A DNA stretch of 64,000 nucleotides from an uncultured Victivallales bacterium (lineage in GTDB: Bacteria > Verrucomicrobiota > Kiritimatiellia > UBA8416 > CAYRKB01). Location of the stretch: the NCBI GenBank assembly GCA_964424705.1, contig CAYRKB010000001.1, forward strand, positions 22,575 to 86,574. Reading direction: 5' to 3'. The notes under the pieces are model-generated. The model was given only the letters and a program-made list of their open reading frames with translations. It was not told the origin of the DNA and ran no database searches. Positions 2,568-60,840 of the stretch are shown here, one piece after another. Numbering within the stretch: the stretch's first letter is position 1; each line of letters opens with the position of its first letter. The translations under genes were made by a program, and so were the position numbers.

Positions 2568-2572
2568 ACGAT

Positions 2573-35451: not shown

Positions 35452-37353
35452 CTATTCTTCCGCCGCTCTCCGTGCGCGGGCTCGCACTGTGCCGATGACA
35501 ATGCGCGGGGGCGGCGGCGCCTCCTGCGGCGAGGACGAGGGAGCGCCCGGGATCATGTGCCGATCGATGGCCGCCGCGGCGTGGTCCTTGATGGTCAGCG
35601 CCCGCCGGAACTCCGCGAGTTCCTTCTCCAGCCGCAGAATCGTGTTGCGGAGCTCAAGGGCCAGGGGGTGCGCGAGCTCCGCGGCCGTAAGCTTTGTCCC
35701 CGTGCGGCAGTTCGTGACGGCTGCGCCCGGCTGCGCGGAGCCGTCCTTCACGAGATGGGAAACGGCGAGCAGGTTTACGGGGCCATACCCGGTGCCGTCG
35801 ACGAGCTGGATGCTCCACTCCATGCAAAGCTCCGGGACCTCGCGCGCCTTGCGCCACGGCGCCCCGTCCCGCGCAACCTCGGTGTCGGGCGCGATGCGAC
35901 AGTCAGCGGCCCACGCATACATCTCGGTGGTTGAGACCGGGCCATAGACAGATTCGCCGAACTTGGCTGTCCATCGCGCGGGCTCGGCAATCGCGCGCAG
36001 AGACGAGAGGTCCCGCGCGAAATCGGCGGCGGCGCGCTCCTGAGCGGCGCGCACTTCACGGACTTCAGCGCGCAGCGCGCCGTTTTCCCGCTGCCGTGCG
36101 GCGGCATCCCGGTCGGACTCGTCTGCCCGGTGTCTTGCCGCCCGCAGAGCCTTCTCCGTTTCGGCGCGCTGCTGCTCCGCAGCCTCAAGATTCAGGGACA
36201 GACGCTCGCCCTGCGCGGCGCCCGCAGCCTGCTCCTGCCGCAGCGCTTCGGCGGCGCGTTGTGCCCCGGCGAGTTCGCTTTGCAGGGCGGCCGCGCGGGA
36301 CAGCGAGTCTGTCTGCCGGGCTTCGAACTCCGCGCCGGCCTGGCGCAGCTGGCGGATTTCCGCAGCGCCCTTCTGCGCCTGGATGGCAAACTCGTCTTTC
36401 GCCTGGATCAGGCACTTCTTGAGATTCTCGACGTCCTGCCGCAGCGCTTCAGAGGCGCGCTGCGTCCCGGCGAATTCGCTCTGCAGGGCTGCCATGCGGG
36501 CCTGCATGTCCGCATGCCGGGTTTCAAGGCTCTCGTTGAGAAGCTGAAGCGCGCGCGCCTCCGCAGCGCCTTTTTGGGCCTGTTCAGCGGCATGGCCATT
36601 CGCCTGATCCATGCTCCTTTTATGATTTGTCGCCGCCTTCTTGAGCTCCTCGTTCTCGCGGCGGAGGTTGGCGAGCGCCTTGGTGGCCTTGGCATTCGCA
36701 TCCGTGGCGACTTCGCTGTCGGCCGTATTCTTTTTCTGGCGCTGCAGTTCGATGCGGGCGGCTTCAAGGAGCAGGTTGGCGGTGTGCAGGTCGTCCTGCG
36801 CTTTGTCGAGGCGCCCGGCGGATAGGGCGAGCTCGTCCGCGTGGCGGGCCTGCGCTCGCTCCAGTTCGCTGAGGCGCGCGTGCAGGGCCTTGACTTCCTC
36901 CTGCGCAGCGGCGGGTTGGCCGGTCGCAGTGGCCGGGTCGGACGGCGGCAGCGCGAAACTCCCCTGGGAAGAAGACGCTTCGAGACCGGCCGGGTTGACG
37001 AACGACGCGACCGCCACCGTGCGGCCGGTCAACCGATGCGTCAGCGTGCAGGCGGGATCGAGGAGACCGTGCTGGATAAGGTGCGGCACGGCGAGCAGAT
37101 TGAATGGTCCGAATTCCTTGCCGTCGACCCGGCGGCCGAGCCACTCCATTTTCAGGTCCGGCAGGTTTGTGGCCGGCATCCACAGCTTGCGGTCGTGCGA
37201 CACCTCGTCGCCCCCGGCCACGCGCCCGGCCTCGGCCCATTGCGCGAGGACGAGGTAGGAGACCGGCCCGTACACGTTGGCGCCCGGCGTGCGAAGGTAG
37301 AACTGAAGCTCGTTCAGGACCGCCGCGCTAGGTCTGTAATCCTTCTCTGACAT
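35452..37353 (-). CDS. coiled-coil protein with N- and C-terminal GYF-like (DUF4339) domain pairs; paralogue of 21092..24718
   Basis: The N-terminus is ...VYGPVSYLVLAQWAEAGRV...LPDLKMEW...GPFNLLAVPHLIQHG. The C-terminus is ...VYGPVSTTEMYAWAADCRIAP...ELCMEW...GPVNLLAVSHLVKDG. The middle contains ~60-aa degenerate coiled-coil repeats (KGAAEARALQ...). An ATG at 37353 was verified. Confidence 0.75.
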   Translation of the reverse strand: MSEKDYRPSAAVLNELQFYLRTPGANVYGPVSYLVLAQWAEAGRVAGGDEVSHDRKLWMPATNLPDLKMEWLGRRVDGKEFGPFNLLAVPHLIQHGLLDPACTLTHRLTGRTVAVASFVNPAGLEASSSQGSFALPPSDPATATGQPAAAQEEVKALHARLSELERAQARHADELALSAGRLDKAQDDLHTANLLLEAARIELQRQKKNTADSEVATDANAKATKALANLRRENEELKKAATNHKRSMDQANGHAAEQAQKGAAEARALQLLNESLETRHADMQARMAALQSEFAGTQRASEALRQDVENLKKCLIQAKDEFAIQAQKGAAEIRQLRQAGAEFEARQTDSLSRAAALQSELAGAQRAAEALRQEQAAGAAQGERLSLNLEAAEQQRAETEKALRAARHRADESDRDAAARQRENGALRAEVREVRAAQERAAADFARDLSSLRAIAEPARWTAKFGESVYGPVSTTEMYAWAADCRIAPDTEVARDGAPWRKAREVPELCMEWSIQLVDGTGYGPVNLLAVSHLVKDGSAQPGAAVTNCRTGTKLTAAELAHPLALELRNTILRLEKELAEFRRALTIKDHAAAAIDRHMIPGAPSSSPQEAPPPPRIVIGTVRARARRAAEE

Positions 37354-37531: not shown

Positions 37532-38281
37532 ATGAGCGAGGACGTTAAACATATTGTTCTGCGAGCCGTTGACGTGAAGCGCTACTATCACGGTGAGGAC
37601 GGCTCGGTCACGAAGGCGCTGGACGGCGTGACCCTCGACGTGGTCCGCGGCGAGTATCTTTCCATCATGGGCCCGTCGGGATCCGGGAAGTCCACCCTGT
37701 TCAACATGATCGGCGGAATCGACTGTCCGACCGAGGGCATGGTGTTTATCGACGAGATCGACATGGCCCAACTCGACGCCTACGAGCTGGCTTGGATGCG
37801 ATGCTACAAGATCGGCTATATATTCCAGAGCTACAACATTCTGCCCACCCTGAGCGCGCTGGAAAACACCACGCTGCCGATGCTTTTTGCGGGGCTCAGC
37901 CCGGGCGACGCCCGGGACAAGGCGGCGGAGATCCTGAAGATGGTGGGGCTGGGCGAGCGGCTGTTTCACCGGCCCTACGAGCTTTCCGGCGGCCAGCAGC
38001 AGCGCGTGGCCGTCGCGCGCGCGATCGCCAATGACCCGGTCATCATCCTTGCAGACGAGCCTACGGCCAACCTTGACACCAAGACCGGCGCGGAGATTAT
38101 CGACCTGCTCAACCGCCTGCGCAAGGAGCGCAACATCACGATCATTTCCGCGACGCATGACATGAAGATGCTCGACGTGTCCGACCGGATCCTGTGGATT
38201 CGCGACGGGCGGGTCGACCGGCTGGAGAAGCGGAAGGATTTGAATATCACGGTGGGCACCATCGGCGCGGCGGATCACTAG
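37532..38281 (+). CDS. ABC transporter ATP-binding protein (LolD/MacB-ATPase/FtsE-like), ATPase 1
   Basis: Walker A GPSGSGKST, the Q-loop, the signature LSGGQQQRVAVARA, Walker B ILADEPT and an H-loop are present. Confidence 0.9.
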   Translation: MSEDVKHIVLRAVDVKRYYHGEDGSVTKALDGVTLDVVRGEYLSIMGPSGSGKSTLFNMIGGIDCPTEGMVFIDEIDMAQLDAYELAWMRCYKIGYIFQSYNILPTLSALENTTLPMLFAGLSPGDARDKAAEILKMVGLGERLFHRPYELSGGQQQRVAVARAIANDPVIILADEPTANLDTKTGAEIIDLLNRLRKERNITIISATHDMKMLDVSDRILWIRDGRVDRLEKRKDLNITVGTIGAADH

Positions 38282-38299: not shown

Positions 38300-38974
38300 T
38301 TGCAGGAAAGGGCGGACGTGGAAGCAGGCAACATACCCGAACAGATACGGCTGAGCTGGGCGATCGCCTTCCAGGTGAGCCTGGCTGGCCTGCGCCGGCG
38401 CTTCGGGCGGTCGATGATCACGATGTCGGGCGTGGTCCTTGCCATTGCCTTCCTGGCCTACATGCTTTCTTCGGAGAGCATCATCAAATCCCTGATTCAG
38501 CTCGATGACGATCAGCTCAACATCCGGCTCCAGGAGATGGGTGTAAACATTTTCCGCGGCGGCGGCACGGATCCCATGACCTACCTGCTGCTGGGGCTGA
38601 CGCTTCTGACCTGCACCGTCGGCATCACGAATTCCATGCTCATGGCCGTCACGGAGCGAACCCGAGAGATCGGGACGCTGAAGTGCCTGGGCGCCAGCGA
38701 TGACTTCATTCTCAAGACCTACTTCATCGAGTCCTCGCTCCACGGGGTCTGCGGGGCCGTGTTGGGCATGGTCATCGGGCTGCTCGTTGCCATCGGGGTG
38801 AACTGGATCAACTATGGCCACCAGGCGCTGTTCGCGCTGCCCCTGGTCGGCCTGCTCAGAGCCCTGGTCATATCCCTTGTCATGGGCGGCCTGATGACGG
38901 TCACCGCATCGCTGTTCCCCGCCTATGTGGCGGCGCGGAAGCAGCCCGTGGAAGCCTTGAGGGTGGAGGAATAG
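38300..38974 (+). CDS. minimal FtsX-domain ABC permease (4 TM, no large periplasmic domain)
   Basis: TM1 is MITMSGVVLAIAFLAYML and only ~45 aa lie before TM2. The C-terminal FtsX 3-TM bundle ends ...FPAYVAARKQPVEALRVEE. The track start is TTG at 38300; GTG at 38318 with a GGAAAGGG RBS is likely. Confidence 0.75.
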   Translation: MQERADVEAGNIPEQIRLSWAIAFQVSLAGLRRRFGRSMITMSGVVLAIAFLAYMLSSESIIKSLIQLDDDQLNIRLQEMGVNIFRGGGTDPMTYLLLGLTLLTCTVGITNSMLMAVTERTREIGTLKCLGASDDFILKTYFIESSLHGVCGAVLGMVIGLLVAIGVNWINYGHQALFALPLVGLLRALVISLVMGGLMTVTASLFPAYVAARKQPVEALRVEE

Positions 38975-39711
38975 TGAGCGACGCCATCATTACCATTCGC
39001 GGGGTCTCGAAGGTGTACCGGAAGGGCGAGGAGGAGGTCCACGCGCTCCGCGGGGTGACCCTCGACATCCAGAAGGGCCAGTACGTGTCGATCATGGGGC
39101 CGTCCGGGTCGGGGAAGTCCACGCTCTTCAATATCATCGGCGGGCTCGACACCCCGACTTCGGGGGACGTGCTGGTGGAAGGCCACAAGCTCGACCAGCT
39201 GAACTCGTCGCAGCTCTCGTGGTTCCGCTGTCACAAGATTGGCTTCATCTTCCAGTCGTTCAACCTCGTCCCCACGATGACCGCGCTGGAGAACGTTGCC
39301 ATCGCGCGCACCTTTGCGGGCGCGTCGCCGTCCGAGGCCCGGCGCGATGCGGCCGCGGTGCTCGAGAGCGTCGGCCTGGGCCATCGGCTGGACCACCTTC
39401 CGTCGCAGGTGTCGGGCGGGCAGCAGCAGCGCATTGCCATCGCGCGGGCCCTGGTGAACAAGCCTCTCATCATTCTGGCGGACGAGCCGACCGGGAACCT
39501 GGATCTCAAGACGGGCGAGGAAATCATCAACCTGCTGTCCGCGATGAAGAAGGACCTGGGGATCACGATCGTGACGGCCACGCACGATATGAAGATGCTG
39601 TCCCGCTCTGATTTTGTCATCCGGATCGACAGCGGCGCGATTGAGAGCATCACGGCGAAGAAGGACCTGAAGATCGTTGTGGGGTCGATTGACGGCAAGA
39701 CGGTGCTCTGA
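38974..39711 (+). CDS. ABC transporter ATP-binding protein (LolD/MacB-ATPase-like), ATPase 2
   Basis: Walker A GPSGSGKST and the signature LSGGQQQRIAIARA are present. It is ~55% identical to ATPase 1. Its start overlaps the permease stop. Confidence 0.9.
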   Translation: MSDAIITIRGVSKVYRKGEEEVHALRGVTLDIQKGQYVSIMGPSGSGKSTLFNIIGGLDTPTSGDVLVEGHKLDQLNSSQLSWFRCHKIGFIFQSFNLVPTMTALENVAIARTFAGASPSEARRDAAAVLESVGLGHRLDHLPSQVSGGQQQRIAIARALVNKPLIILADEPTGNLDLKTGEEIINLLSAMKKDLGITIVTATHDMKMLSRSDFVIRIDSGAIESITAKKDLKIVVGSIDGKTVL

Positions 39712-39718
39712 GGCCGGG

Positions 39719-40066
39719 ATGAATAAAATTGATCGGAGAAGCTCCCTCGCGGGAGTTCCGGTGATGCTGGATGGCGTTGCGGCGGAGCATAAGCCGGATG
39801 GGGCGATGGCCCTGCGGGTGAGGATCGGGCGCGGCGCGGGTTTTCTTGAGCGGTTCCGGCCTGCGGTGACGGAGCGGACGTACGAGCTGGACCGGTTCGG
39901 CGGGTTCGTGGTGGACGAGATTGACGGCAAAAGGAATGTGCTGAGCATCATTGACGCGTTTCAGGAGAGATTCAGGATGTCGCGCCGTGAGTCGGAGCTT
40001 GGCGTGGTGGCGTTTCTGAAGATTCTCTTAAAGAGAAACCTGATCGCGATTGTGGCGAAAGATTGA
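39719..40066 (+). CDS. PqqD-like protein (RiPP-recognition-element / peptide-chaperone fold)
   Basis: The segment ...RTYELDRFGGFVVDEIDGKRNVLSIIDAFQERFRMSRRESELGVVAFLKILLKRNLI fits the PqqD family pattern (YxLD..G..vW..iDG.rtv.eI...l...f.....a..dv..Fl..L...gLI). The ATG at 39719 follows the ATPase 2 stop. The track ORF starts at 39677. Confidence 0.6.
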   Translation: MNKIDRRSSLAGVPVMLDGVAAEHKPDGAMALRVRIGRGAGFLERFRPAVTERTYELDRFGGFVVDEIDGKRNVLSIIDAFQERFRMSRRESELGVVAFLKILLKRNLIAIVAKD

Positions 40067-40096: not shown

Positions 40097-43000
40097 TTGT
40101 CCGTGACGATTATGAATGTGATGCGGTCTGAGGCCGGAAAGCGAGCGGGGCGGGGTCTGTCGAGGCCCGCGCTGAACATGGCCTGCGCTGTGGTGCTGGC
40201 TCTAACGGCGTTGGTTTCCCTCGGCCAGGAGGTCCCTGCGGCGCCTTCCGCGGAGGCCCGCGCCATGATTTCCGAGATGCGCGAGCTCTTCGGGTCGGCC
40301 GGGTCGATGGCGCCGGGGCAGCCGGGCAACATGGCTCTGGAGGCCGAGGTGGCCCGTCGCTTCGCAAAGAGCGGCTTCGCCACGGGATCGATTCCCTTCA
40401 GCGCGCCGGTCTTTGTGCCGGGCCGGACCGTTCTCACGCGGACCAACGAAGCCCCGGTGACTCTGTACACGATGCATCCCACGATGTACCGGCCGGGCAA
40501 TTTCGCCGAATCCGAGTTTGCGGCCGACCTGGTGTATCTAGGGAAGGGCGAGTATGAGGACCTGGCGCGGGTCAAGGGCTCGCAGCTGGAGGGCGCCATC
40601 GCGTTGATGGACTTCAACTGCGGCGCCCGGTGGCGGGACCTGCTGCGGTTCGGCGTGAGCGGCTTTGTCTTCATCGGCGCGCCGTCCTACGAGTATGCCG
40701 ATTCCTACTCGAAGGTGTACAACACCGAGGTCTCCGTGCCGCGCTTCTTCGCTGAGGCGGAGTCCGGCGGGAAGCTGAAGGCCGCCTGCCTTGCCGCCGA
40801 AAAGGACGCGTTCGCAATCCGGGTCGACGTCCAGTCCGAGCCGTCGCGATTCCAGCCGGGAGAGCTGAAGGACCTCTGGGTTCTTGTCCCCGGAAGCGAT
40901 CCTGAGCTGGGCAAGGAGATCGTGCTGTTCACGGCGCGGATGGACGCCAATAGCGTGGTGCCGGAGCTGGCGACCGGCGGCCAGGCCGCGATCAACCCGT
41001 ACCTCATGCTCAAGATGCTGGAAGATTTCACGGCGAAGCCGCCGAAGCGATCCGTGCTGCTCGTTGCGGTGAACGCGCACACGCAGGCGCACTTGGGCGA
41101 GCGCATCCTCGCGTGGCACCTGCTGGCGGATAGCAATGATGCCGCGAAGCTCCGCGGCGAGATGGCCCGCGAAATGAGGGTCGCGCGCCTGTACAGCGAG
41201 AACTACGGGCTGCTCAAGCTGGCCCCGGTGTCGCTCGACCAGGGCAGGCTTTTTGCCGCGGTCGAAATCCTTACCCAGCTTGACCTCAAGCGGCAGGCGC
41301 AGCGCAAGGCGCAGCGGGACGCGGCGAAAGACGGGGTGCCAGCGCTTGAAGCGACGCCAGCCGCCACGAACGCAAATGCCGAGATTTCCGAGGTCGATAC
41401 GAACGACGTGCTCGACCTCGCGGTCTTTGAGGAGCGGGACTATCGCGAAGCCATCGAGCGGGGCGTCAAGGCCGCGCGGGAGGAGGAGAAAGGCAGCTTT
41501 TTCTCGCGGCGCATGCGCGATGAGAAGATGGACCTGGCGCTCGCGCAGGAGCGGCAATGGCTCGAAAGCATGGAAGGCATGCCCTACGCCGAGATCCTGG
41601 AGATGGCGCAGCTGGCCAAGCCGGTGTTTGACGACGAAAAACTGTTCGAAAGCTGGCGGATTGACCTCGATTCATCGAGCGGGCAGCGCCTTTCCGTCAA
41701 GAAGGAAATTCAAACTGCGGCAATGAAGACCAAGAACGCGCTGCTGCAGGAGCGGATCCGCGCGACCCGGGACAAGCAGCTGAGCGAGGCCGAGCGAAGC
41801 GCGCGCCTGGCCGACGTGGAGCAGCGGAGGGTGGACGCAACCCGCGTGCTCGTGATGTTCAACAAGATCGACTTCGGCATCGGCCGGCGGAAAGTGCGCT
41901 ACAGGGACATTGCGGCGAACGAGGCGCAGCGCACGCTGCTCAAGCGGTACCGGGACGAGCTCACGGAGAAGTTCTCCTTCTGGCAGCGCCACCATCGGGG
42001 CCGGCTGGAGGCCGATGCCGCCGGGGATTCGGTCCGCGATCAGCTCGGGGGCGGGAAGGTTGTCCTCGCGCTGACCTTGGAGATGACAGCCAACAGCGGG
42101 AAGCTTGCTTTTTCCGCGAGCTGCCCGGGCTTCGAGCCGTCGTGGCAGAAGAACTTCGGCCAATTTGTCTCCGGGATTGTTGGCAATCTCTCCTCCAACC
42201 GTGCAGACCGGTGGACCCCCTACGTGGATTCGCTGAACCCCGTGCCGGGTCTGCAGCAGGTGGACCTGCTCTATTCAACGGACTCGGCCGTGCGGTACTT
42301 TGTCGCGGCGAAGAACGGAGTCCAGGGCTGCGGCACCCCGGCCCTGGCCCTCAAGAATGCGCTGGCCGGCAAGGGGCGGGTCTTCAGCCCGGGGGACACG
42401 CTGGAAGCGCTTGATGCGCAGCAGATCTTCGACCAGCAGGCGTGGCTGCGCGAGTTCCTGCCGGCGCTTCTGAACGATCCGAAGATGACCGCCCGCGAGA
42501 ACCTGGACGTTACGCTGGTGGGGCATGGCGCCACGTTCGACACGAGCCGGGGCCTGTGGTCCACGCTTCTCGGGACGTTCGCCATGGAGGAGATGACCGC
42601 GAACATTGTGCCGGAGAAGGCCCTGCCGGGCTGCATGGTCGTGCTTTACAGCAAAGCGGATCCTACGGCCGCGGCGAACTTCCTGTTGGATGGCGACGTC
42701 GTCAACTGCTATGCGGCGATGAGCGATATTACCGGGAAGGCTGTGGTCTACGGAATCGCCGAGGGCGGCGGCATGGCGCCGCTGGCCTACCAGATGGATA
42801 AGAACTGGCGCCAGGTGGTGGAAGCGCTGGACAAGGGCCGCATCCAGACCACCATGCAAATGGACAGCAACATCGCCCGCGACCCCGCCAAGACGCTGCC
42901 CATGTTCCCGTGCCGCGAGTTCCCGATCTTGGACAGGGTGGACCCGACGCTGGTGGGAACTGAACCGATTACCGTCGCGACCATCTGGCCGAAGATAGGA

Positions 43001-45625
43001 AGCAGCAAGTCGGATCCCGCGAAGTACGGGGTGCACGGCTTCTTCCTGCCGAACAGCGTCTGGTCGCACGCTGCGTCCGGCCCCGGCGCGGTCTACCTGA
43101 ACCGGAAAGACGGTGCGGCGGCTCAGGAATCCCTGATGGTCATCACGGAAAAGAAGCGCTGTTCGATCAATGCCACCCCTGAGAAGCCGGAGGGCACCGG
43201 CTACGCCACCGCCGGGGAGCTTGGGTCCGACCTTTTCGCGCACACGGCGGAGGACATGGATTCGCTGAACGGGTTCCGGAGAAATCGGCTCAAGGGCGTT
43301 GCCAACTCGCTTGTCGAGCGGTTCATCGGGGAGGGGAAGAAATCGCTCCAGGCCATGGATGTTGCGCGGCGAGCCAAGGACCACGGGGCGTTTCTGCAGG
43401 CGAACTACCGGGCGCTGGGAAGCGAGATCAAGGCGTACCTGCAACTCAGCGCCATGAATGCCGACATGCTGAAGGCCATCATCCTGTACATGGCCCTGAT
43501 GCTGCCTTTCTGCTTCTTCATCCAGAAGCTGCTTTTCGATTTCGACCTGCTGCAGCATGAGCTGCTCGCGTTCTCGGGATGCTTCGTCGCGATGTACAGC
43601 CTTTTCCGCGTGATCCACCCCGCCTTCACCGTTGCGGAAACGCCGGAGGCGATCTTCATTGCGTTCGTTCTAGGGGCGATCGGGCTCTTCGTCACCATGA
43701 TCATGCATTCCCGGTTCAAGTCGGACATGCAGATGATTTTCGGGAAGGTCGGCGGCATAGGTGACGACGCGGCCTATGGCACGGTCGGCACGACGGCCAT
43801 GATGGTGGGAATTCACAACATGCGGCGCAGGCGGGTGCGCACGGTGCTGACCACCTCGACCGTGATGCTCGTGATCTTCACGATGCTGACGTTCTCCAGC
43901 GTTTCGCAGCGGCTGGACCCCACGCTGATCAGGAAGGCGTCGGATGCGCCGTATACCGGGCTCTTCTTCCACTGGCCCGGCGGGAAGAATATGGACCAGG
44001 ATACGGTCAACGTCCTGCGAAACATCTTCTCGGACCGGGCGGATGTTGTTGTGAGGCGGACGATGGCGCTCACGGGCGCTTGGCCGATCGAGCCGGTGGG
44101 CGGCGGGCGGAGCGAGAGCGCCACGAATCTTATTCACGGCATCAAGAGCCTTGTCGGGCTGCCGTCGAACGATAGGGTGTTTGCCATGTCGCGACCCCTG
44201 GTTGCGGGCCGCCATTTCTCCGCCGATGATGCGAGCGAGATCATTCTGCCGGCGAAGGCCGCGGAGGCCATGAATTTGTCCGTGGCGGACGTGGGCCGGA
44301 CCACGCTGCGCTTTCATGGCGCGGACCTTGCGCTGGTGGGCATTGCGGACGACCAGCGCCTGCGCCTCGTCCGCGACATGAATCCCAATCTGCCGTTTCT
44401 GCCGTTTCTTGCGAATCAGGCGATGGGCGGTCCGAAGAAGGATCCCGAGTCGCTCGAGATCGCGGAGGATGACGTGAGCGCGATCGTGGCCGACACGGCC
44501 TCGCTGGTGCTGCTCCCCGCGACGGTGGCGAAGAACTGCGGCGCGCTCCCGCACAGCGTTTCCGTCCGCTTCCTTGATGAAGTGGTGGCGGGCCCCGGCT
44601 TTCACCTGTGGGAGGAGATGGACCGCCTGCTGACGATTACGCACGCCCGGTTCTACATCGGCAGCGAGAGCGCGTTCAAGGCCAACTCGGAGGCCGAGCG
44701 TGTCACGCAGGCGGGCATCTATTTCGTGAACAGTAACTACCGGACGTCCATCGGCGGGCTTGCGCGGCTTATCATTCCGCTGCTGATTGCCGGCCTGATC
44801 ATTCTCAACACGATGCTGGGCACGGTCTACGAGCGCAAGTCCGAGATCGCCATTTACAACGCCATCGGCCTGAACCCGACGCACATCTTCATGTTCTTTC
44901 TGGCGGAGGCGTTCGTGTACAGCTTCATCGGGTCCGTGGGCGGGTATCTCATCGGGCAGAGCCTGGCGATGACGCTGCAGCATTTTCACCTGATCCGGGA
45001 CATCGGCGTCAACTTCTCGTCGCTGATGGTGGTGTATGCCATCCTGTTCACCATTGGCCTGGTGCTTCTCTCCACGATCTACCCGGCCTACGTGGCGACG
45101 CGCACGGCGGTGCCCTCCGGAAAGCGGCGCTGGTCCATGCCGGCGCATGACGGCCACACGATGGACGTGGCGTTCCCCTTCATTTACGAGGGCAGCCTTT
45201 CTTCCGGCGTGATGTACTACATTTACGAGGACTTCCTCGCGTGCACGGAGAAGTCGCTCGGCAGCGTGATCGCCACGTTCGAGAGCAAGGCCGTTACCAC
45301 GGACGCCGAGGGAATGCCGGTGTACGCGCTGACGTATTCGATCGGGCTTGCGCCCTTTGACCTGGGCGTTACCCAGCGGGTGAAGTTCGTGGCGCGCTAT
45401 GAGAAGCGCGTGAGCAGTTACCGCCTGTCCGTCTCCATCGAGCACCTGTCCGGGCTGGACTCGAACTGGGTGAGCTTGAACCGCACGTTCCTGGAGCGCA
45501 TGCGGAAGTTTCTCATGGTGTGGCGCAATATGCCGCCGGCGATGTACGGGTGGTATTCGGATTGTGGAAAGAAGTTGTATCTGGACCAGCCGCTGCCGAC
45601 AAAGCCGGAGAGGGCTGTTCAGTAG
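40097..45625 (+). CDS. 1842-aa fusion: signal anchor + PA/M28-peptidase-like ectodomain + long charged/coiled linker + MacB/FtsX-type ABC permease
   Basis: The N-terminus ...MACAVVLALTALVSLG leads into M28/PA-like blocks (EGAIALMDFNCG...; LFTARMDANSVVPELATGGQAAIN; VAVNAHTQAHLGER). A MacB-like TM1 (RVRTVLTTSTVMLVIFTMLTFSSVSQRLDP) is followed by a ~300-aa periplasmic domain, then FtsX TM2-4 (...IAIYNAIGLNPTHIFMFFLAEAFVYSFIGS...). The start codon is uncertain: TTG 40097, GTG 40103 or ATG 40112. Confidence 0.75.
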   Translation: MSVTIMNVMRSEAGKRAGRGLSRPALNMACAVVLALTALVSLGQEVPAAPSAEARAMISEMRELFGSAGSMAPGQPGNMALEAEVARRFAKSGFATGSIPFSAPVFVPGRTVLTRTNEAPVTLYTMHPTMYRPGNFAESEFAADLVYLGKGEYEDLARVKGSQLEGAIALMDFNCGARWRDLLRFGVSGFVFIGAPSYEYADSYSKVYNTEVSVPRFFAEAESGGKLKAACLAAEKDAFAIRVDVQSEPSRFQPGELKDLWVLVPGSDPELGKEIVLFTARMDANSVVPELATGGQAAINPYLMLKMLEDFTAKPPKRSVLLVAVNAHTQAHLGERILAWHLLADSNDAAKLRGEMAREMRVARLYSENYGLLKLAPVSLDQGRLFAAVEILTQLDLKRQAQRKAQRDAAKDGVPALEATPAATNANAEISEVDTNDVLDLAVFEERDYREAIERGVKAAREEEKGSFFSRRMRDEKMDLALAQERQWLESMEGMPYAEILEMAQLAKPVFDDEKLFESWRIDLDSSSGQRLSVKKEIQTAAMKTKNALLQERIRATRDKQLSEAERSARLADVEQRRVDATRVLVMFNKIDFGIGRRKVRYRDIAANEAQRTLLKRYRDELTEKFSFWQRHHRGRLEADAAGDSVRDQLGGGKVVLALTLEMTANSGKLAFSASCPGFEPSWQKNFGQFVSGIVGNLSSNRADRWTPYVDSLNPVPGLQQVDLLYSTDSAVRYFVAAKNGVQGCGTPALALKNALAGKGRVFSPGDTLEALDAQQIFDQQAWLREFLPALLNDPKMTARENLDVTLVGHGATFDTSRGLWSTLLGTFAMEEMTANIVPEKALPGCMVVLYSKADPTAAANFLLDGDVVNCYAAMSDITGKAVVYGIAEGGGMAPLAYQMDKNWRQVVEALDKGRIQTTMQMDSNIARDPAKTLPMFPCREFPILDRVDPTLVGTEPITVATIWPKIGSSKSDPAKYGVHGFFLPNSVWSHAASGPGAVYLNRKDGAAAQESLMVITEKKRCSINATPEKPEGTGYATAGELGSDLFAHTAEDMDSLNGFRRNRLKGVANSLVERFIGEGKKSLQAMDVARRAKDHGAFLQANYRALGSEIKAYLQLSAMNADMLKAIILYMALMLPFCFFIQKLLFDFDLLQHELLAFSGCFVAMYSLFRVIHPAFTVAETPEAIFIAFVLGAIGLFVTMIMHSRFKSDMQMIFGKVGGIGDDAAYGTVGTTAMMVGIHNMRRRRVRTVLTTSTVMLVIFTMLTFSSVSQRLDPTLIRKASDAPYTGLFFHWPGGKNMDQDTVNVLRNIFSDRADVVVRRTMALTGAWPIEPVGGGRSESATNLIHGIKSLVGLPSNDRVFAMSRPLVAGRHFSADDASEIILPAKAAEAMNLSVADVGRTTLRFHGADLALVGIADDQRLRLVRDMNPNLPFLPFLANQAMGGPKKDPESLEIAEDDVSAIVADTASLVLLPATVAKNCGALPHSVSVRFLDEVVAGPGFHLWEEMDRLLTITHARFYIGSESAFKANSEAERVTQAGIYFVNSNYRTSIGGLARLIIPLLIAGLIILNTMLGTVYERKSEIAIYNAIGLNPTHIFMFFLAEAFVYSFIGSVGGYLIGQSLAMTLQHFHLIRDIGVNFSSLMVVYAILFTIGLVLLSTIYPAYVATRTAVPSGKRRWSMPAHDGHTMDVAFPFIYEGSLSSGVMYYIYEDFLACTEKSLGSVIATFESKAVTTDAEGMPVYALTYSIGLAPFDLGVTQRVKFVARYEKRVSSYRLSVSIEHLSGLDSNWVSLNRTFLERMRKFLMVWRNMPPAMYGWYSDCGKKLYLDQPLPTKPERAVQ

Positions 45626-45764
45626 TCGGTGATCCGTGGCCGGTGATCAGTAACGAGTGGCGGAAGATTGGGAGTCAGGATGAAGAGGACAGGGGTATAT
45701 TCGAGGTCCATTCTGGATACTGACTACTGGATTCTGTCTTCTGCTTACGTAAGAGGAGGTCTCT

Positions 45765-47774
45765 GTGTCGTTCACTGACGACAAAGAACTGAACGAATAT
45801 CGGCAGATCATGGCGCCGCCCGAAGTGTCAGGCTTCGAGGATGGCTTCAACTGGAAAGCCATCGCCGGCGCTATTTTCCTGGGCTTCATCGTGATGCCCG
45901 CGTCGGACTATCTCAGCCTTGTCATCGGCGGCGACGCCGGGCTTGGCAACACCATGAAGTGGATTCTGGTGATCCTCTTCGCCGAAATCGCGCGCCGCTC
46001 GTTCACCAGTCTGAAATGTCAGGAGCTGTACGTTCTGCAGTTCATGGTCGGCTATGCGATGGCCGACCAGTTCACCGGATACCTGTGGACCCAGTACGTG
46101 GCGCAGTCGGACTATATCAAGGGGCTGGGGCTCGACCTCCCCAAATGGGCGTTTCCCGCCGCCGAGGAATTGGAGCGGAGCGGCCGCACGTTCCTGGCTA
46201 AGCCGTGGCTGCCCATCATTGCCCTTACCATGTTCGGGGTCTTCATCAGCCGCATCCACAACTACGGCCTCGGCTACGTGCTTTACAGGGTTGTCAACGA
46301 CGTTGAGAAATTACCCTTCCCGTTCGCGCCCGTTGCGGCGGCAGGCATTGTGGCCCTGTCCACCGACCGCGGCGACGAGGCGAAGTGGCGCCGGCGCTGT
46401 TTCAGCATCGGCGGCATCGTTGGGATTACGTGGGGCATGATCTACATTTGCGTGCCCGTGATCACGGAGGCCATTCTTCCCAAGCGCGTCGAGCTCGTCC
46501 CCCTGATCTTTCTCGATTTCACGACGCAGTTCGGCAAGCTGCTGCCGGCCGTCCCTTTCAACCTCGTGCTGGACGTTGGCGCGTTTCTGGCCGGTATGAT
46601 CGTGCCGTGGTGGGGGGTGATCGGAGGAGCGGTCGCGCTGCTCATGACCTGGATTCTGAACCCGTTCCTCCAGCATATCGGCGTCCTCTCCCAGTGGCGG
46701 CCGGACATGGGCTACATCAATACGACGTTCGTCAACAGCATTGATTTCTATCTGTCGTTCGGAATCGGGGTGTCCCTGGCCATTACGTTCAGCCAGATGT
46801 TCATCACGGTCGGGGAGCGGATCAGGGAAAAGATGAAGCCCGGCGCGCAGCGCGTGATCACCCACAGAAAGACCATGGGGCAGGGGTTTCGTGAGAATTG
46901 GAAGATCCTGTTCACTAACAACCGTGCCCGCGGCGATTTCTCGATTTGGGTCGCCATCGGCATTTACCTCTTTGAGACGTTCGCATGGATCGGGCTAGGC
47001 CTGTACCTGATCGGGCCGCGCTATCCGTGGATGCTGCTGACCTTCTTTGCGCTGGTCTACACGCCGCTCTTCTCGTATGCGACGGCCAAGATGGAAGGGC
47101 TGATCGGCCGCGGGCTGAACCTGCCGATGCTCAGGGAAGTGACGATTCTCGCCACGGGGTACCAGGGCTCGGCCATCTGGTTCGCGCCCATGCCGATCGC
47201 GAACGTGGGGAGCGAGACGTCCGGCTTCCGGGTGCTCGAATTGACGGGCACGAAGATCCAGAGCCAGATCAAAACCATCGTGCTCACTCTGCCTATTGTC
47301 GTCATTGCGTCATTCTTCACGGCGGAGATTCTCTGGCGCATGGCGCCTGTGCCGTCGGCCGCGTACCCATGGACCGAGCGCATGTGGGAGATGAATATCC
47401 GGAACTGGGGCGTAATCTACACCTCGACGCTGGAGGGCGGATCCCAGTTCCTGGAGGCCCTGAACGGCAATTACGTGGTCTGGGGCCTCGTGGCCGGGTC
47501 TACGCTGCTTGGCTCGTTGACCATGCTGGGGCTGCCGGTCATGTTTATTTTCGGCGCGCTGGGCGGCCTGTCGCAGGTGTCCCCCGGCGCGATGTTCTGC
47601 GGCCTGGTCGGCGCCATTGTGGGACGGTTCTATTTCAGGAAACGTTACAAGGACATGTGGCTGAAGTATATGACGGTCGTGCTGGCAGGCTTCGGTTGCG
47701 GGATGGGCATTATCGCCATGGTCGGGATGGCCTTTACTGTGATCACGCGAATGTTAAGCCCCACGTTGTGGTGA
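45765..47774 (+). CDS. large polytopic integral membrane protein (>=14 predicted TM helices), family unknown
   Basis: GTG at 45765 is preceded by AAGAGGAGG. Hydrophobic helices run throughout (AIFLGFIVMP..., ILVILFAEIA..., WLPIIALTMFGVFI..., etc.). It has no ABC or MFS signatures. Confidence 0.7.
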   Translation: MSFTDDKELNEYRQIMAPPEVSGFEDGFNWKAIAGAIFLGFIVMPASDYLSLVIGGDAGLGNTMKWILVILFAEIARRSFTSLKCQELYVLQFMVGYAMADQFTGYLWTQYVAQSDYIKGLGLDLPKWAFPAAEELERSGRTFLAKPWLPIIALTMFGVFISRIHNYGLGYVLYRVVNDVEKLPFPFAPVAAAGIVALSTDRGDEAKWRRRCFSIGGIVGITWGMIYICVPVITEAILPKRVELVPLIFLDFTTQFGKLLPAVPFNLVLDVGAFLAGMIVPWWGVIGGAVALLMTWILNPFLQHIGVLSQWRPDMGYINTTFVNSIDFYLSFGIGVSLAITFSQMFITVGERIREKMKPGAQRVITHRKTMGQGFRENWKILFTNNRARGDFSIWVAIGIYLFETFAWIGLGLYLIGPRYPWMLLTFFALVYTPLFSYATAKMEGLIGRGLNLPMLREVTILATGYQGSAIWFAPMPIANVGSETSGFRVLELTGTKIQSQIKTIVLTLPIVVIASFFTAEILWRMAPVPSAAYPWTERMWEMNIRNWGVIYTSTLEGGSQFLEALNGNYVVWGLVAGSTLLGSLTMLGLPVMFIFGALGGLSQVSPGAMFCGLVGAIVGRFYFRKRYKDMWLKYMTVVLAGFGCGMGIIAMVGMAFTVITRMLSPTLW

Positions 47775-47795: not shown

Positions 47796-50735
47796 ATGAG
47801 CGAAAAGACTGAAGGTTTAGGAAGAATGACGGGGCGGGCGTTTGTCCTCGGCCTCTTCTTTGCGGCGGTTTTTGCCTGGTTTACGGTCCTGCGCGAAAAC
47901 CGTCCTCCCTATGAGGCTTTGACGGCGACCAACATTCCCGTCCTCCCGTATGCCCTGCTCGTGGTCTCCGTGCTCGTTATCAACCCGCTGGTCAAGTTTC
48001 TGCGGCTGGCGCGGGTTTTTTCGCGCGTTGAGCTGCTCGTGATCTTCTTGATGGGAATGGTGTCGAACGGCATCGTTTCCTACGGTCTGCAGGCGCAGCT
48101 CGTGCCGCTTGTAGCGGGCCCGTCGAGCCGCTTCAACCACCCCGGGGTCAGGTGGAACGTGTATGTCGAGCCGTACCTCAATGAGGATTTCTATCTCGTC
48201 TCGAAGGGTTCCAGCAAGGCCGCCGCCAGCTACAGGGACGCGGACGCGGCCGCGGAGAAGGCAAAGTCCGTGCTCAAAGCGGCGCAGGACCTGACGGTGT
48301 GCAGGGAGGACCAGCAACGGGCCCAGGAGGCGCTGGACGGGCTTGTCGCGCCGCAGGGCCAGCCGCAGGTGCCTGAGACCGTGCGGCAGGGCTACGAACG
48401 CAAGCTGCGCATTGCCCAGCGCCAGTACCAGCAGGCTGAGAAGGCTTGGCAGGTGTATGCCGCCGCGAACGTGGAGCGTGAGGTCATTGCCACATTTGGC
48501 GAGAAGATCAAGCTGCTGGATGTCGAAAAGGCGGCGCGGAAGGAAGCCCTGGCGGCCATCAAGAAGCCGGCGACCGATTTCGTCAGCGAGTTTGAGAAGG
48601 GATTTGCGCCGGAGAAGCGGGCGATCCCCGGGTTTATCTATATCACGGGCGAAGGCTGGGAGAGCTACTCGTCCCGCTTCGAGCGCATGGTAAAGGGCCG
48701 GAAGGCCTTCGCCGAGCTGTATGAGGCAGATTGCCTGCTGGCCAGAGCCCGGCAGGGCGAAGGCCTCGACGTGGCAGCCGTGGACGCGGCTCTGGGAAGA
48801 GCGATTGTCCTGCTGGAACACATCGGCGACATGTCGCAGCTTGCTGAGCGGAAAGCTGCGTTCTCGGCCAAGCAGGCGGAGCTCGATGCCATCCGCGCGA
48901 AGGAGCAGTCAGGGCTGAAGGACCTCCAGGAGCGCGGCTACTATGCTAAGGACCGCGACATCGCATCGATCGAGAAGCAGACCAAAGCTACGACGAAGCG
49001 GATCGAGCTGCTGGACAAGCAGATTCTCAAGCTGACGGAGGCCGTGAAGGCGAAGATCGACCCGGAGGCGACAGTGCGCGGGCGCGCCGTCGCCGTGCTG
49101 GAGACCGCGCGCTCGATCCGCGCTGAATTCGGCACGGCGAAGGATATCCCGGCGCTGCGCGGCCGGCTGGCGGCAAGCCTTGCGACGTTCCGCTCGTTCG
49201 ACGCGTCCCTGCGCCGGTTCCTTGTGGGGGATATCCAGTGGAGCGTCTGGGCGAAGCCTCTCTTCAACTGGAGCCTGATCGTCTTTGCGACGTACATCGT
49301 CCTGATGTCGCTTAACGTCCTTATCTTCAGGCAGTGGGCCCATAATGAGAAGCTCATCTACCCGCTGGCAGAGCTTCCGCTGATCATGGCTGGCGCGGAT
49401 GACGTGGAACAGAAGGGCGTGCTGCCCCTGGTGTTCAAGAGCGGACTTTTCTGGACCGGGTTCTGCATATCCGCGGTCATCCTCGGGTGGAACCATCTGG
49501 CGGACGCCAGGATCATTGCCAACATCAGCCCGATCTCGCTCGACTACAAGTGGGGATCCTATGTGGACGGCAGCGTATTCAACGCGCTCAAGGAGACCCG
49601 CTTCAAGATTATCTTCTCCGTGATCGGCCTGACATTCCTCGTTCCGGCGGGAGTTTCTTACTCCATGTGGTTTTGGCAGGTGCTATGCATGGTGGAACTG
49701 CTCGTCATGGTCTGGCTTGGCATGGGGCAGAGCCGCGACTCATTCCAGTACCACTTCACGTATCTCATGAACTACCAGACGGCGCAGGGCGGCGGCGCCC
49801 TCATCGTCTTCGCCTCGGTCATTCTCTGGAAGTGCCGGAAGTACCTCTTGTCCGCCTTCTCGGCGCAGTCCGTTGCGGGCCTGGATCCGTCCGAGCGCAG
49901 CGAGCTGCGGGTGTCGTCCGCGCTATTCCTTGCGGGGTCCGTTGCGCTCGTGGCCATGTTCACGCTACGGCTCAACGTGAACATCTTTTACTCTGTCATC
50001 ATGTACCTGCTTTTGCTCGTCCTGACGATCGGCCTGGTGCGCGCGGTCGCAGAAGGCGGCGTCCTTGGCACCCAGGCGTTCTTCAACCCCTTCCACTTTA
50101 TCCGGCATGTGTTCGGCATGGACAAGGCCTGGAACTCGCCCGTGCTGATGGCGCCGCTGTGGATCTTTGTGGCGATGATGTACGTCGACATCAAGTCCTT
50201 CATCGCGCCCGCGATGGCCAACGCGATGAAGCTCCGCGACGACATGCGCATCAACCGCCTCAAGTTCCACGGTGCCGTGTGGGCCAGCATTCTGGCCGCG
50301 ATGGCCGTCGGGTTTGCGGTGCACCTGATCCTCGCCTACTCGGGCGGCACCGGCAAGATGAGCGGGTGGCATTACTCGGGCGGCGTGCAGGACCAGATGG
50401 GCTTTGGCTTCATCCAGCGCATGATGGAAGAGAAGCCCGTGGACGTGGCGGGGGTGCGGTGGTGGATGCTCGCCGGCGCGTCGATCATGGTGATGGTGAT
50501 CCTGCTGCGCCAGCAGTTCAACTGGATTACGCATCCGATCGGCCTGATCATGTGCATCAACCCGATGATGTTCCTGTTCTGGGGATCCATGTTTATCGGA
50601 TGGTGTTTCAAGTCGCTCGTGAGCAAATACGGGAATCGGGAAACCTACCAGCGCCTCCGCTATCTGGCCGTCGGCCTGATCGTTGGCGAGCTTTTTGTTG
50701 CGGTCCTCGGGTGGCACCGGTTTGACTTCTGGTGA
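47796..50735 (+). CDS. 979-aa integral membrane protein: N-terminal TM cluster, ~300-aa cytoplasmic/periplasmic coiled-coil insert, C-terminal multi-TM domain; family unknown
   Basis: TMs lie at residues ~15-110. Residues ~150-470 are charged and helical (AAEKAKSVLKAAQDL...QERGYYAKDRDIASIEKQTKATTKRIELLDKQILKLTEAVKAK). About 11 further TMs follow to the C-terminus. Confidence 0.7.
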   Translation: MSEKTEGLGRMTGRAFVLGLFFAAVFAWFTVLRENRPPYEALTATNIPVLPYALLVVSVLVINPLVKFLRLARVFSRVELLVIFLMGMVSNGIVSYGLQAQLVPLVAGPSSRFNHPGVRWNVYVEPYLNEDFYLVSKGSSKAAASYRDADAAAEKAKSVLKAAQDLTVCREDQQRAQEALDGLVAPQGQPQVPETVRQGYERKLRIAQRQYQQAEKAWQVYAAANVEREVIATFGEKIKLLDVEKAARKEALAAIKKPATDFVSEFEKGFAPEKRAIPGFIYITGEGWESYSSRFERMVKGRKAFAELYEADCLLARARQGEGLDVAAVDAALGRAIVLLEHIGDMSQLAERKAAFSAKQAELDAIRAKEQSGLKDLQERGYYAKDRDIASIEKQTKATTKRIELLDKQILKLTEAVKAKIDPEATVRGRAVAVLETARSIRAEFGTAKDIPALRGRLAASLATFRSFDASLRRFLVGDIQWSVWAKPLFNWSLIVFATYIVLMSLNVLIFRQWAHNEKLIYPLAELPLIMAGADDVEQKGVLPLVFKSGLFWTGFCISAVILGWNHLADARIIANISPISLDYKWGSYVDGSVFNALKETRFKIIFSVIGLTFLVPAGVSYSMWFWQVLCMVELLVMVWLGMGQSRDSFQYHFTYLMNYQTAQGGGALIVFASVILWKCRKYLLSAFSAQSVAGLDPSERSELRVSSALFLAGSVALVAMFTLRLNVNIFYSVIMYLLLLVLTIGLVRAVAEGGVLGTQAFFNPFHFIRHVFGMDKAWNSPVLMAPLWIFVAMMYVDIKSFIAPAMANAMKLRDDMRINRLKFHGAVWASILAAMAVGFAVHLILAYSGGTGKMSGWHYSGGVQDQMGFGFIQRMMEEKPVDVAGVRWWMLAGASIMVMVILLRQQFNWITHPIGLIMCINPMMFLFWGSMFIGWCFKSLVSKYGNRETYQRLRYLAVGLIVGELFVAVLGWHRFDFW

Positions 50736-50742
50736 TGCTCCC

Positions 50743-51681
50743 GTGAAGAAACCCGACCGCCAGCCGCGCGAGTTCGCCTGGGACGGCGTCGAGTTCCAGA
50801 TCCCCTGGAACTGGGAGCTCGGGCTCTATGAGTTCATGCGCAAGGGGGTTTCCCGTATCGAGGTGGAAGACGAATACGTCGTCCGGCTCGAAGCGGAATG
50901 GATCCGGCCGACGAAGCGGGCGCTGAGGCCGGCTGCCATCCTTGAAAAATACAAGGATGCAGCGGGCGCCCTCACGCGCATGGCGCATGAAACGATCGAA
51001 ATTCATGGCCTGCCGCCCGGCTGGGCGGCCACGCGTGCCCTGCAGAGGACCACGGGCAGCTCCCGGAAGAAGCGCGGGCTGGCGGTGTCGGAGCGCGAGA
51101 GCATTTGCGCGATCTACGTGTGCCCCCAGTCGAAGCTCCTCCTCTTCGTCCTGCTGCACTTTTCATCCGAAGACAAGGAAAACCCGGAAGAGGTGATGCG
51201 CATGATCGCGGGCAGCTTCCGGGATCACGCTGAGGCCCCGCTCATCCCCTGGAAGCTGTTCGATATCGCGTTTGAATTGCCGCGCGAATTCAAGCTCGCC
51301 CGCGCGTCGTTCGATGTCGGCGCCAAGCATATGGTGTTTCGCTGGAAGACGCGCCGGCTCCATCTGTGGCATTTCGCGTGCGCCGACATGTTCCTCAAGG
51401 GCGGGGAAGGCATGGAGGAGTGGGTCACCGGCTACCTGAACGCCTATTCGCAGATTCGCGGAATTGTCTTCATGCCCGGAAAGAACGGGGAAATCCTCTG
51501 GCGGCGGCGCGCGCGGCATCTCTTTGGGCACCGCAACGAGATTGCCAGCTGGTGTTTCCAGTACAAGGCCGGGTGCCGCCTGGACGCTGGAAGAAACCAG
51601 CTCCTGGCCTGGGTCTATCACTACCGCGAGGCGGGCGACCTGCACGTAATCCCCGCGTCCTGCCTGCCGCTCGGGAGTTGA
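50743..51681 (+). CDS. soluble hypothetical protein (312 aa), last gene of the plus-strand operon
   Basis: A GTG start lies 7 nt after the preceding stop. The protein is Trp/aromatic-rich with two similar halves (...FAWDGVEFQIPWNWELGLYEF... / ...PLIPWKLFDIAFELPREFKL...). The track ORF 50683..51681 extends upstream in-frame across the previous stop region. Confidence 0.55.
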   Translation: MKKPDRQPREFAWDGVEFQIPWNWELGLYEFMRKGVSRIEVEDEYVVRLEAEWIRPTKRALRPAAILEKYKDAAGALTRMAHETIEIHGLPPGWAATRALQRTTGSSRKKRGLAVSERESICAIYVCPQSKLLLFVLLHFSSEDKENPEEVMRMIAGSFRDHAEAPLIPWKLFDIAFELPREFKLARASFDVGAKHMVFRWKTRRLHLWHFACADMFLKGGEGMEEWVTGYLNAYSQIRGIVFMPGKNGEILWRRRARHLFGHRNEIASWCFQYKAGCRLDAGRNQLLAWVYHYREAGDLHVIPASCLPLGS

Positions 51682-52824: not shown

Positions 52825-53019
52825 GATTCCTCTCCCCGGGTTGTCGCTCTTAATGCGTCCCATATTGACCATATCGGCCGCATGGTTGGCAAGCCTGCAG
52901 ATTGCGTTAGCCGGGGTCCGCGCGGGTCCTCCATGGGACCGCGGGAGCACACGCGTGCCCTGTCCCGCCCAATGCCCAAGGGCGCGCAGGCCGGATGTCT
53001 GAAGCGACCCCTAAGCATT

Positions 53020-60820: not shown

Positions 60821-60840
60821 TGTGTCTCCTTCATTGCTGC

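Follow-up and report, generated by a model that had tools for sequence, protein, structure and literature searches.

The 64,000-nucleotide stretch of DNA analysed here (the window) comes from an uncultured Victivallales bacterium (contig CAYRKB010000001.1, assembly GCA_964424705.1) and carries, at 39719-40066 on the plus strand, the gene of a small protein with the fold of PqqD, that is, of the recognition elements (RRE) that serve peptides made on ribosomes and modified after translation (RiPPs). This 115-residue protein is a genuine RRE (PqqD-fold) domain, and it is a constant member of an eight-gene membrane module restricted to the Planctomycetota-Verrucomicrobiota-Chlamydiota (PVC) superphylum, a module that is without RiPP enzyme or precursor. 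What is regarded here as established is that the protein has this fold, that it belongs to the module and that natural gene fusions imply a physical link. As for its function, the protein is probably a dedicated cytoplasmic subunit of a PVC-specific envelope machine encoded by the eight genes, in which it would serve as a peptide-binding adaptor and not as the chaperone of a RiPP maturase.

The frame at 39719-40066 is open, with 115 codons and a stop, and its guanine-cytosine (GC) fractions of 0.62, 0.41 and 0.73 at codon positions one, two and three are like those of the true genes of the window, which has 64% GC. The ATG lies 7 nucleotides past the stop of the gene for the second ATPase of an ATP-binding cassette (ABC) system, and a GAGG just upstream of it overlaps this stop. 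The gene stands fourth in a row of eight that share its direction, with ATPase 2 (38974-39711) before it and a giant FtsX-type protein (40097-45625) after it. A preliminary description of this DNA had placed a PqqD-like gene between these two, and the reading frame, the coding GC pattern, the Pfam match and the neighbours all confirm it. Some public records of NCBI and Logan (P0001) call the protein from Met16, with 100 residues, losing a conserved N-terminal motif (39719-39763), and a call by the Joint Genome Institute (JGI; P0141) has the 115-residue form. The start at 39719 is preferred because the motif at the N-terminus, DRRxSLAGVPV, is kept among the homologues. The product is basic, with an isoelectric point (pI) of 10.1, and cytoplasmic, with neither signal peptide nor transmembrane (TM) segment.

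Pfam PqqD (PF05402) matches residues 53-109 with 32.0 bits, against a gathering threshold of 23.4 (E=1.6e-7), and the alignment spans positions 11-67 of the 67 in the profile. The NCBIfam models for PqqD proper (TIGR03859, 29.4 vs 46 bits; NF002535, 18.2 vs 101 bits) and for the lasso-peptide B1 chaperone (NF033536, lasso_PqqD_Bac, 25.3 vs 80 bits) stayed below their cut-offs, and ScmD matched below threshold only. Therefore, the protein is a member of the PqqD superfamily that belongs to none of its curated functional subfamilies. An AlphaFold2 model, built from 22 homologues with a predicted local distance difference test (pLDDT) of 87.6 and a predicted template modelling score (pTM) of 0.77, has strands at residues 13-16, 20-24, 30-37, 50-57 and 109-112 and helices at 59-67, 74-85 and 89-105, and it presents the three-stranded sheet, followed by three helices, of the winged-helix RRE fold.

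By structure comparison, the best match of the model was the RRE-like domain of the methyltransferase Rv2067c (score 12.9), followed by the leader-bound lasso chaperones TbiB1 (11.4) and TfuB1 (11.3) and by PqqD (10.0); the RRE domains of ThcOx, LynD, TigE, TglI, MibB/NisB, PbtF and SuiB scored lower. In a comparison by sequence, the family profile matched the solved lasso PqqD-family chaperone 9x90_B (E=6.7e-4) from the strand before helix 1 to helix 3. The Pfam score, the fold matches and this profile match together counter the earlier worry that the similarity to PqqD might be spurious. Chance similarity, or a frame that is not coding at all, could be argued from the modest Pfam score (32 bits) and the missed NCBIfam equivalog cut-offs, but it is already refuted by at least 161 homologues at 90% clustering, by the coding GC pattern, by the confident model and by the strong fold matches, and its probability is negligible.

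Conservation within the family peaks in the groove-forming elements: helix 3 (RRESELGVVAFLKxL) and the strand preceding helix 1 (YELD). Two features are specific to the family, namely an additional N-terminal strand and a 12-residue, near-invariant RGxGFLERFRP insert between canonical strands 2 and 3, ahead of the beta3 equivalent. The fold also brings to mind a winged-helix regulator that would bind the DNA of its own operon: regulators of this kind are the presumed ancestors of RREs, and the protein, besides being basic, often heads its operon beside a divergent promoter region. Winged-helix DNA binders match the model with scores of 5.5-6.5, and this role is considered highly improbable.

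In the window, the gene stands in an operon whose ABC and membrane character the preliminary description had recognised, although it missed the conserved 312-residue partner and the wider eight-gene module, which reads as follows.

37532-38281, plus strand: ABC ATPase 1 (249 residues), MacB/LolD/FtsE type; Pfam ABC_tran, E=7.6e-32.
38300-38974, plus strand: short FtsX-type permease (about 218-224 residues, exact start uncertain); Pfam FtsX, E=8e-18.
38974-39711, plus strand: ABC ATPase 2 (245 residues), MacB/LolD type; Pfam ABC_tran, E=2.4e-36.
39719-40066, plus strand: the RRE gene, stand-alone PqqD/RRE-fold protein of 115 residues.
40097-45625, plus strand: giant FtsX protein of about 1,842 residues, starting at TTG 40097 or ATG 40112; Pfam FtsX at residues 1560-1670.
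45765-47774, plus strand: polytopic membrane protein of 669 residues, with an AGGAGG ribosome-binding site before GTG 45765.
47796-50735, plus strand: membrane protein of 979 residues; Pfam DUF6785 (E=8.9e-75) and DUF6784 (E=5.6e-17).
50743-51681, plus strand: cytoplasmic protein of 312 residues with a tandem Mog1/PsbP-like fold; no Pfam family.

A word-indexed search returned 22 homologues of the RRE protein and the family profile at least 161 clusters at 90% identity, all of about 111-136 residues and with E-values down to 1e-54. In an exhaustive profile search, 928 representatives were retrieved at E<=1e-3, 173 at <=1e-10 and 17 at <=1e-30. Where these homologues carry a name, it is "PqqD family protein", in metagenome-assembled genomes of Planctomycetota, Kiritimatiellae and Lentisphaerae. 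By using genome and metagenome scans and contig look-ups, 46 loci of the PVC superphylum with 35 distinct RRE sequences were gathered. Among these 35 homologues, the gene directly 3' of the RRE is the giant in 28, the 312-residue protein in three and the 669-residue gene, which resembles those of oligopeptide transporters (OPT), in one. On the 5' side an ABC ATPase was found in 26: in 16 of them it is ATPase 1, read from the opposite strand, and on the strand of the RRE itself it is ATPase 2 in 7 and ATPase 1 in 3.

The arrangement of the module varies from locus to locus. Where the ABC block is inverted onto the divergent strand, the RRE keeps the company of the giant, the 669-residue gene and DUF6785, and a rearranged, complete module runs ATPase, RRE, giant, 669-residue gene, DUF6785, FtsX, ATPase and 312-residue gene. 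The 312-residue protein recurs as a direct neighbour of the RRE at variant loci, and distant members of the RRE family (profile E about 1e-13 to 1e-19) have its homologue directly upstream (hhalign 98.4% and 96.7%). Two loci from uncultured Planctomycetota (L008 and L021) hold a reduced module, with a divergent ABC1-FtsX-ABC2 block, then the RRE, the 669-residue OPT-like gene and the 312-residue gene; the giant and DUF6785 are not between the module genes there. The six genes of this reduced form hint at the core of the module.

A physical link between the RRE and the giant comes from natural fusions. The exhaustive profile search yielded two long proteins that begin with the RRE, over 121 residues. 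In P0144 (1,923 residues), the RRE is followed in frame by a linker of about 10 residues, the TM1 of the giant and then the entire giant, and the gene upstream ends in the tail that is characteristic of ATPase 2. The second protein, P0143 (676 residues), has the same RRE-giant junction. Since the two proteins come from separate sequencing runs and are 57.8% identical, the fusion is an evolved architecture and not an assembly error. By it, the RRE comes to lie next to the giant, on the cytoplasmic side of the membrane. In a third protein, P0290, a fragment similar to the 312-residue protein is joined to the RRE (hhalign 91%). The idea that the RRE works with the transporter, already put forward in the preliminary description, is strongly supported by the conserved synteny, the two in-frame fusions to the giant and the OPT-like neighbour.

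RiPP enzymes were sought at the 46 loci within up to 10 kb, and no radical S-adenosylmethionine (SAM)/SPASM maturase, YcaO, LanB, lasso B2/C or lanthipeptide enzyme stands beside the module. Transglutaminase-like and asparagine-synthetase-like genes are likewise missing from every locus, and scans of the window with Pfam and NCBIfam returned no pqqA, pqqB, pqqC or pqqE. The earlier observation that no radical-SAM, cyclodehydratase or lasso B2/C gene lies nearby thus holds in the operon and across the related loci. Two radical-SAM genes occur elsewhere in the window, and both were judged unrelated to the RRE operon.

59915-60820, minus strand: glycyl-radical-enzyme activase (TIGR02494, 339.7 bits), beside a pyruvate formate-lyase (PFL)-like enzyme.
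1050-2567, plus strand: radical-SAM/SPASM protein of 505 residues, 37 kb from the RRE; no NCBIfam cut-off reached.

The first of these belongs to a pair at 59915-63081 (minus strand) formed by a glycyl-radical enzyme (PFL-like plus Gly_radical, 746 residues) and its activase. The second is followed, within 1050-5624, by a flexirubin-type LolA2 homologue and a HAE3/HpnN-like transporter of the resistance-nodulation-division (RND) type, and this group resembles a cluster for the export of lipids or pigments; the C-terminal part of the radical-SAM/SPASM protein looks hot-dog-like. No homologue of this protein was found in 49 related loci (442 kb). Owing to the LolA2/RND context and the lack of co-occurrence, the gene was dropped as a partner of the RRE.

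These results bear on the classical alternative, according to which the RRE would be a RiPP chaperone whose precursor and maturase are encoded in trans, the ABC and OPT genes exporting the product. Its membership of the PqqD family fits such a role, ABC exporters are common in RiPP clusters (PMC7470986), and the radical-SAM/SPASM protein of the window has no N-terminal RRE of its own, scoring 94.9 bits with the PqqE model against a cut-off of 381. However, none of the 46 loci offers a maturase or a precursor within the distance covered, the radical-SAM/SPASM gene sits in a lipid-type cluster and does not recur in the 442 kb of related loci, and what the RRE is fused to is a subunit of a membrane transporter and not an enzyme, so this alternative is judged quite improbable. 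MacB-type systems with a permease of 1,800 residues are not known as typical RiPP exporters.

A possible precursor had also been singled out in the preliminary description, which saw a small-peptide candidate in a frame between the giant and the 669-residue gene.

45680-45778, plus strand: 32-codon frame in the 139-nucleotide spacer between the giant and the 669-residue gene, judged not to be a gene.

The frame is open. Its GC content at third codon positions (GC3) is 0.48, compared with about 0.84 in the neighbouring genes, the spacer has 51% GC, and the 669-residue gene has, as the ribosome-binding site of its GTG start, the AGGAGG that the frame spans. By tblastn, no match was obtained at the syntenic position in any locus; at L014 and L011 the spacer measures only 12-23 nucleotides, and its RNA folds no better than shuffled sequence (z = -0.05). 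With no syntenic match, a spacer that is missing elsewhere, low GC3, overlap with a ribosome-binding site and an unremarkable RNA, the frame was ruled out as a precursor. A wider look for short conserved frames in syntenic loci, by all-against-all comparison of 175 small intergenic frames from 11 loci, returned no conserved peptide, only low-complexity chance matches. In compact operons, the intergenic gaps measure 3-80 nucleotides.

The partners of the RRE describe the machine in question. Both ATPases have intact Walker A, signature, Walker B and H-loop motifs, and FtsX-type permease domains are present in the 224-residue and 1,842-residue proteins, which together with the MacB/LolD-type ATPases makes this a type VII ABC system. 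The best NCBIfam matches of ATPase 1 are LolD and MacB, both under their equivalog cut-offs, and since the cut-offs for LolD, MacB and FtsE were not reached, the system is none of these three specifically. For the short permease, hydropathy predicts four TM segments and an extracytoplasmic loop of about 33 residues; in L001 it was called at 218 residues. The C-terminal extensions of both ATPases share a strand-like I-x-V-G-x-I motif. That of ATPase 1, LEERxxLxIxVGGIG (window 38230-38281), is kept in 19 orthologues, and that of ATPase 2, ..NITVGTIDGxTVM-COOH (window 39650-39711), is conserved to the last residue; the tails of the two include ..LNITVGTIG.. and ..LKIVVGSIDGKTVL. LolD and MacB of E. 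coli are not known to carry such tails. These extensions may be docking peptides for a partner.

The giant has, by crude hydropathy, a predicted N-terminus inside, TM1 and an extracytoplasmic region of about 1,080 residues, followed by a TM cluster, a MacB-like extracytoplasmic domain, FtsX TM2-4 and a cytoplasmic C-terminal domain of 181 residues; the parts predicted to be cytoplasmic are residues 1-24, 1204-1248 and 1662-1842. Its profile matches MacB, LolC, YtrF and LolF of the PDB in the FtsX part only. Residues 205-371 are homologous to a Peptidase_M28-annotated reading frame of a distant variant (hhalign 97.9%), and Pfam applied to the giant of the window itself returned no match in this M28-like segment. 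Its consensus, FTAPMDANSVVPELAxGAQSAGN, suggests that the zinc ligands are degenerate, and the segment may be a pseudo-peptidase.

Apart from the ATPases, the 669-residue protein is the best conserved member of the module, with orthologues of 667-670 residues and an identity of 57-68% in close loci and 45% in the distant L016. The OPT family (PF03169) matches five of its nine orthologues (best E=1.1e-7), and the copy of the window reaches 13.8 bits against a cut-off of 25.8 (E=0.022) over profile positions 119-621 of 623. On this profile evidence the protein is probably a divergent relative of the OPT oligopeptide transporters. Its N-terminal tail, ..KELNEYRQIMAPP.. within the first 30 residues, is invariant and holds a YxxI motif, which is of the general W/Y/LxxP/L/I type bound by PqqD-like RREs (PMC12710340). 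Homology between this protein and the DUF6785 protein was considered and is not supported (BLASTP E=0.23, hhalign probability 0.3%), and the DUF6785 proteins gave no OPT match. The DUF6785 protein carries, at residues 90-493, a charged insert of about 400 residues (63 Lys and Arg, 54 Asp and Glu) between predicted TM3 and TM4, with weak matches to coiled-coil families, and this insert is probably a coiled coil. The true start of the 312-residue protein is GTG 50743, the same as in the JGI call P0023. Sequence-profile searches of the PDB gave nothing significant for the 669-residue and 312-residue families, and an anti-phage defence scan with PADLOC matched generic FtsX-like TM models only. Promoter and terminator scans of the operon gave counts no better than shuffles.

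Taken together, these parts allow a working model of the peptide-binding adaptor. The core of the machine would be a heteromeric type VII (MacB/LolCDE-like) ABC transporter with two competent ATPases, a minimal FtsX permease and the giant of about 1,800 residues, to which a divergent OPT-family permease, the DUF6785/DUF6784 membrane protein, the RRE and the tandem Mog1/PsbP-fold protein would be added. The RRE would sit at the inner face of the membrane, by TM1 of the giant and alongside the 312-residue protein, and would hold a linear stretch of peptide, added as a beta-strand, in the groove made by strand 50-57 and helix 89-105. This stretch could belong to a peptide or protein cargo handled by the transporter, as a leader-like part of it, or else to a partner, whose conserved cytoplasmic tail it would be; candidates are the tails at the C-terminus of the ATPases and at the N-terminus of the 669-residue protein. 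In either case, capture would couple recognition to the cycle of ATPase and permease. That the substrates would be peptides or proteins is indicated by the OPT-like permease, by the M28-like ectodomain and by the chaperone-like 312-residue protein, and this peptide theme (the OPT relationship, the M28-like segment and the binding-module fold of the 312-residue protein) is counted in favour of the adaptor.

Several points weigh against this model. The groove that would bind the peptide could also be filled in cis by strand 13-16 or by the RGxGFLERFRP insert. Fusion and synteny speak for association with the machine and not for peptide binding as such, the limited length of the contigs may leave room for a precursor encoded in trans, and any direction of transport or kind of cargo is a guess. 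The P0290 fusion may be artefactual: its contig, from long reads, is error-prone and has many split genes, and P0290 is therefore taken only as evidence of adjacency. An alternative is a structural or regulatory adaptor without peptide cargo, in which the RRE fold would be an interaction module for assembly or gating of the ABC/FtsX system, contacting for instance the ATPases or the cytoplasmic C-terminal domain of the giant, with the ancestral groove unused or filled in cis. This is unlikely, since the groove helix 3 and its strand are the most conserved elements, the hydrophobic pattern of lasso B1 is kept in the profile alignment, and the characterised proteins of this fold and level of similarity all bind a linear peptide (PMC12710340, PMC7470986).

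Beyond the peptide-binding adaptor, a more specific proposal can be made, which is possible but doubtful: the RRE might be the substrate receptor of a machine of PVC bacteria, of a class not recognised before, that translocates peptides or proteins. A leader-like segment would be recognised by the transporter-bound RRE with the help of the Mog1/PsbP-fold protein as co-chaperone, passage would be through the OPT-like channel, and a MacB-type mechanotransmission ABC system would provide the power. Were this true, leader recognition in the style of RiPPs would be coupled to transport and not to chemical modification.

The genes that flank the operon in the window encode GH63-like hydrolases, a GYF-domain coiled-coil protein, a DUF362/ferredoxin protein, a major facilitator superfamily (MFS) transporter and UvrD, and no flanking gene is conserved as a module member at related loci. 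The GYF coiled-coil, DUF362/Fer4, GH63-like and MFS proteins, together with a 425-residue frame, were dropped as members for this reason. Two large GYF_2-domain proteins are found, at 35452-37353 (minus strand) and 21092-24718 (plus strand); the 633-residue GYF_2 protein has a long middle part rich in Ala, Gln and Glu, probably a coiled coil, and is divergent from the transporter operon, a position not conserved elsewhere. Convergent to the end of the operon lies a DUF362 protein with a 4Fe-4S dicluster insert (51730-52950, minus strand), and the 425-residue frame (54256-55533, plus strand) has coding-like GC3 and no Pfam match.

RRE and PqqD domains are used as a class-independent marker of RiPP clusters, and orphans are commonly set aside, either as false positives or as RiPP classes yet to be discovered. 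The family described here is a counter-example: its RRE fold is genuine, and the protein is constantly, and sometimes by covalent fusion, part of a transport machine without a modifying enzyme. It suggests that transport or assembly has made new use of the way in which RREs capture peptide strands, it cautions genome miners against scoring this RRE subfamily as a RiPP cluster, and it draws attention to an envelope system of eight genes, restricted to PVC bacteria, as a machine still to be characterised. The RRE-Finder study reported orphan discrete PqqD-like proteins as "false positives" of its lasso RRE model, with no lasso machinery co-occurring, and left their role open, as DNA binders or members of unknown RiPP classes (PMC7470986). 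In contrast with these orphans, the present family has a conserved set of non-RiPP partners and natural fusions to one of them. In the literature searched, RRE papers mention orphan discrete RREs and not the present module, none of the top-ranked matches ties PqqD to PVC phyla, and DUF6785 and DUF6784 go unmentioned.

The nearest known proteins, by structure as by sequence, are the lasso B1 proteins and PqqD, whose equivalog scores, partner enzymes and precursors the present family does not share. Unlike the discrete lasso B1 proteins TbiB1 and TfuB1, the RRE is encoded at loci without B2 protease, C cyclase or precursor, it adds the N-terminal strand and the RGxGFLERFRP insert, and in some lineages it is fused to a membrane permease and not to a protease. 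PqqD (PDB 5SXY, 3G2B), the peptide chaperone of PQQ biosynthesis, has the radical-SAM enzyme PqqE as its partner, whereas the partner here is a transporter. In the lysine methyltransferases Rv2067c (8HKR) and PKMT2 of Rickettsia (5DOO), the RRE-like domain is part of an enzyme with no transporter context, and identity is 13%. On the side of the transporter, FtsX-type permease domains and MacB/LolD-type ATPases are shared with the type VII ABC systems MacB, LolCDE, FtsEX and YtrEF, and since there are two distinct permease proteins and as many ATPase genes, a heteromer like LolCDE is suggested. No characterised type VII ABC system is known to have an RRE subunit, an OPT-like partner, DUF6785 or a permease of 1,800 residues with an M28-like ectodomain. 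The RRE domain is already known; its recruitment into a transporter is new.
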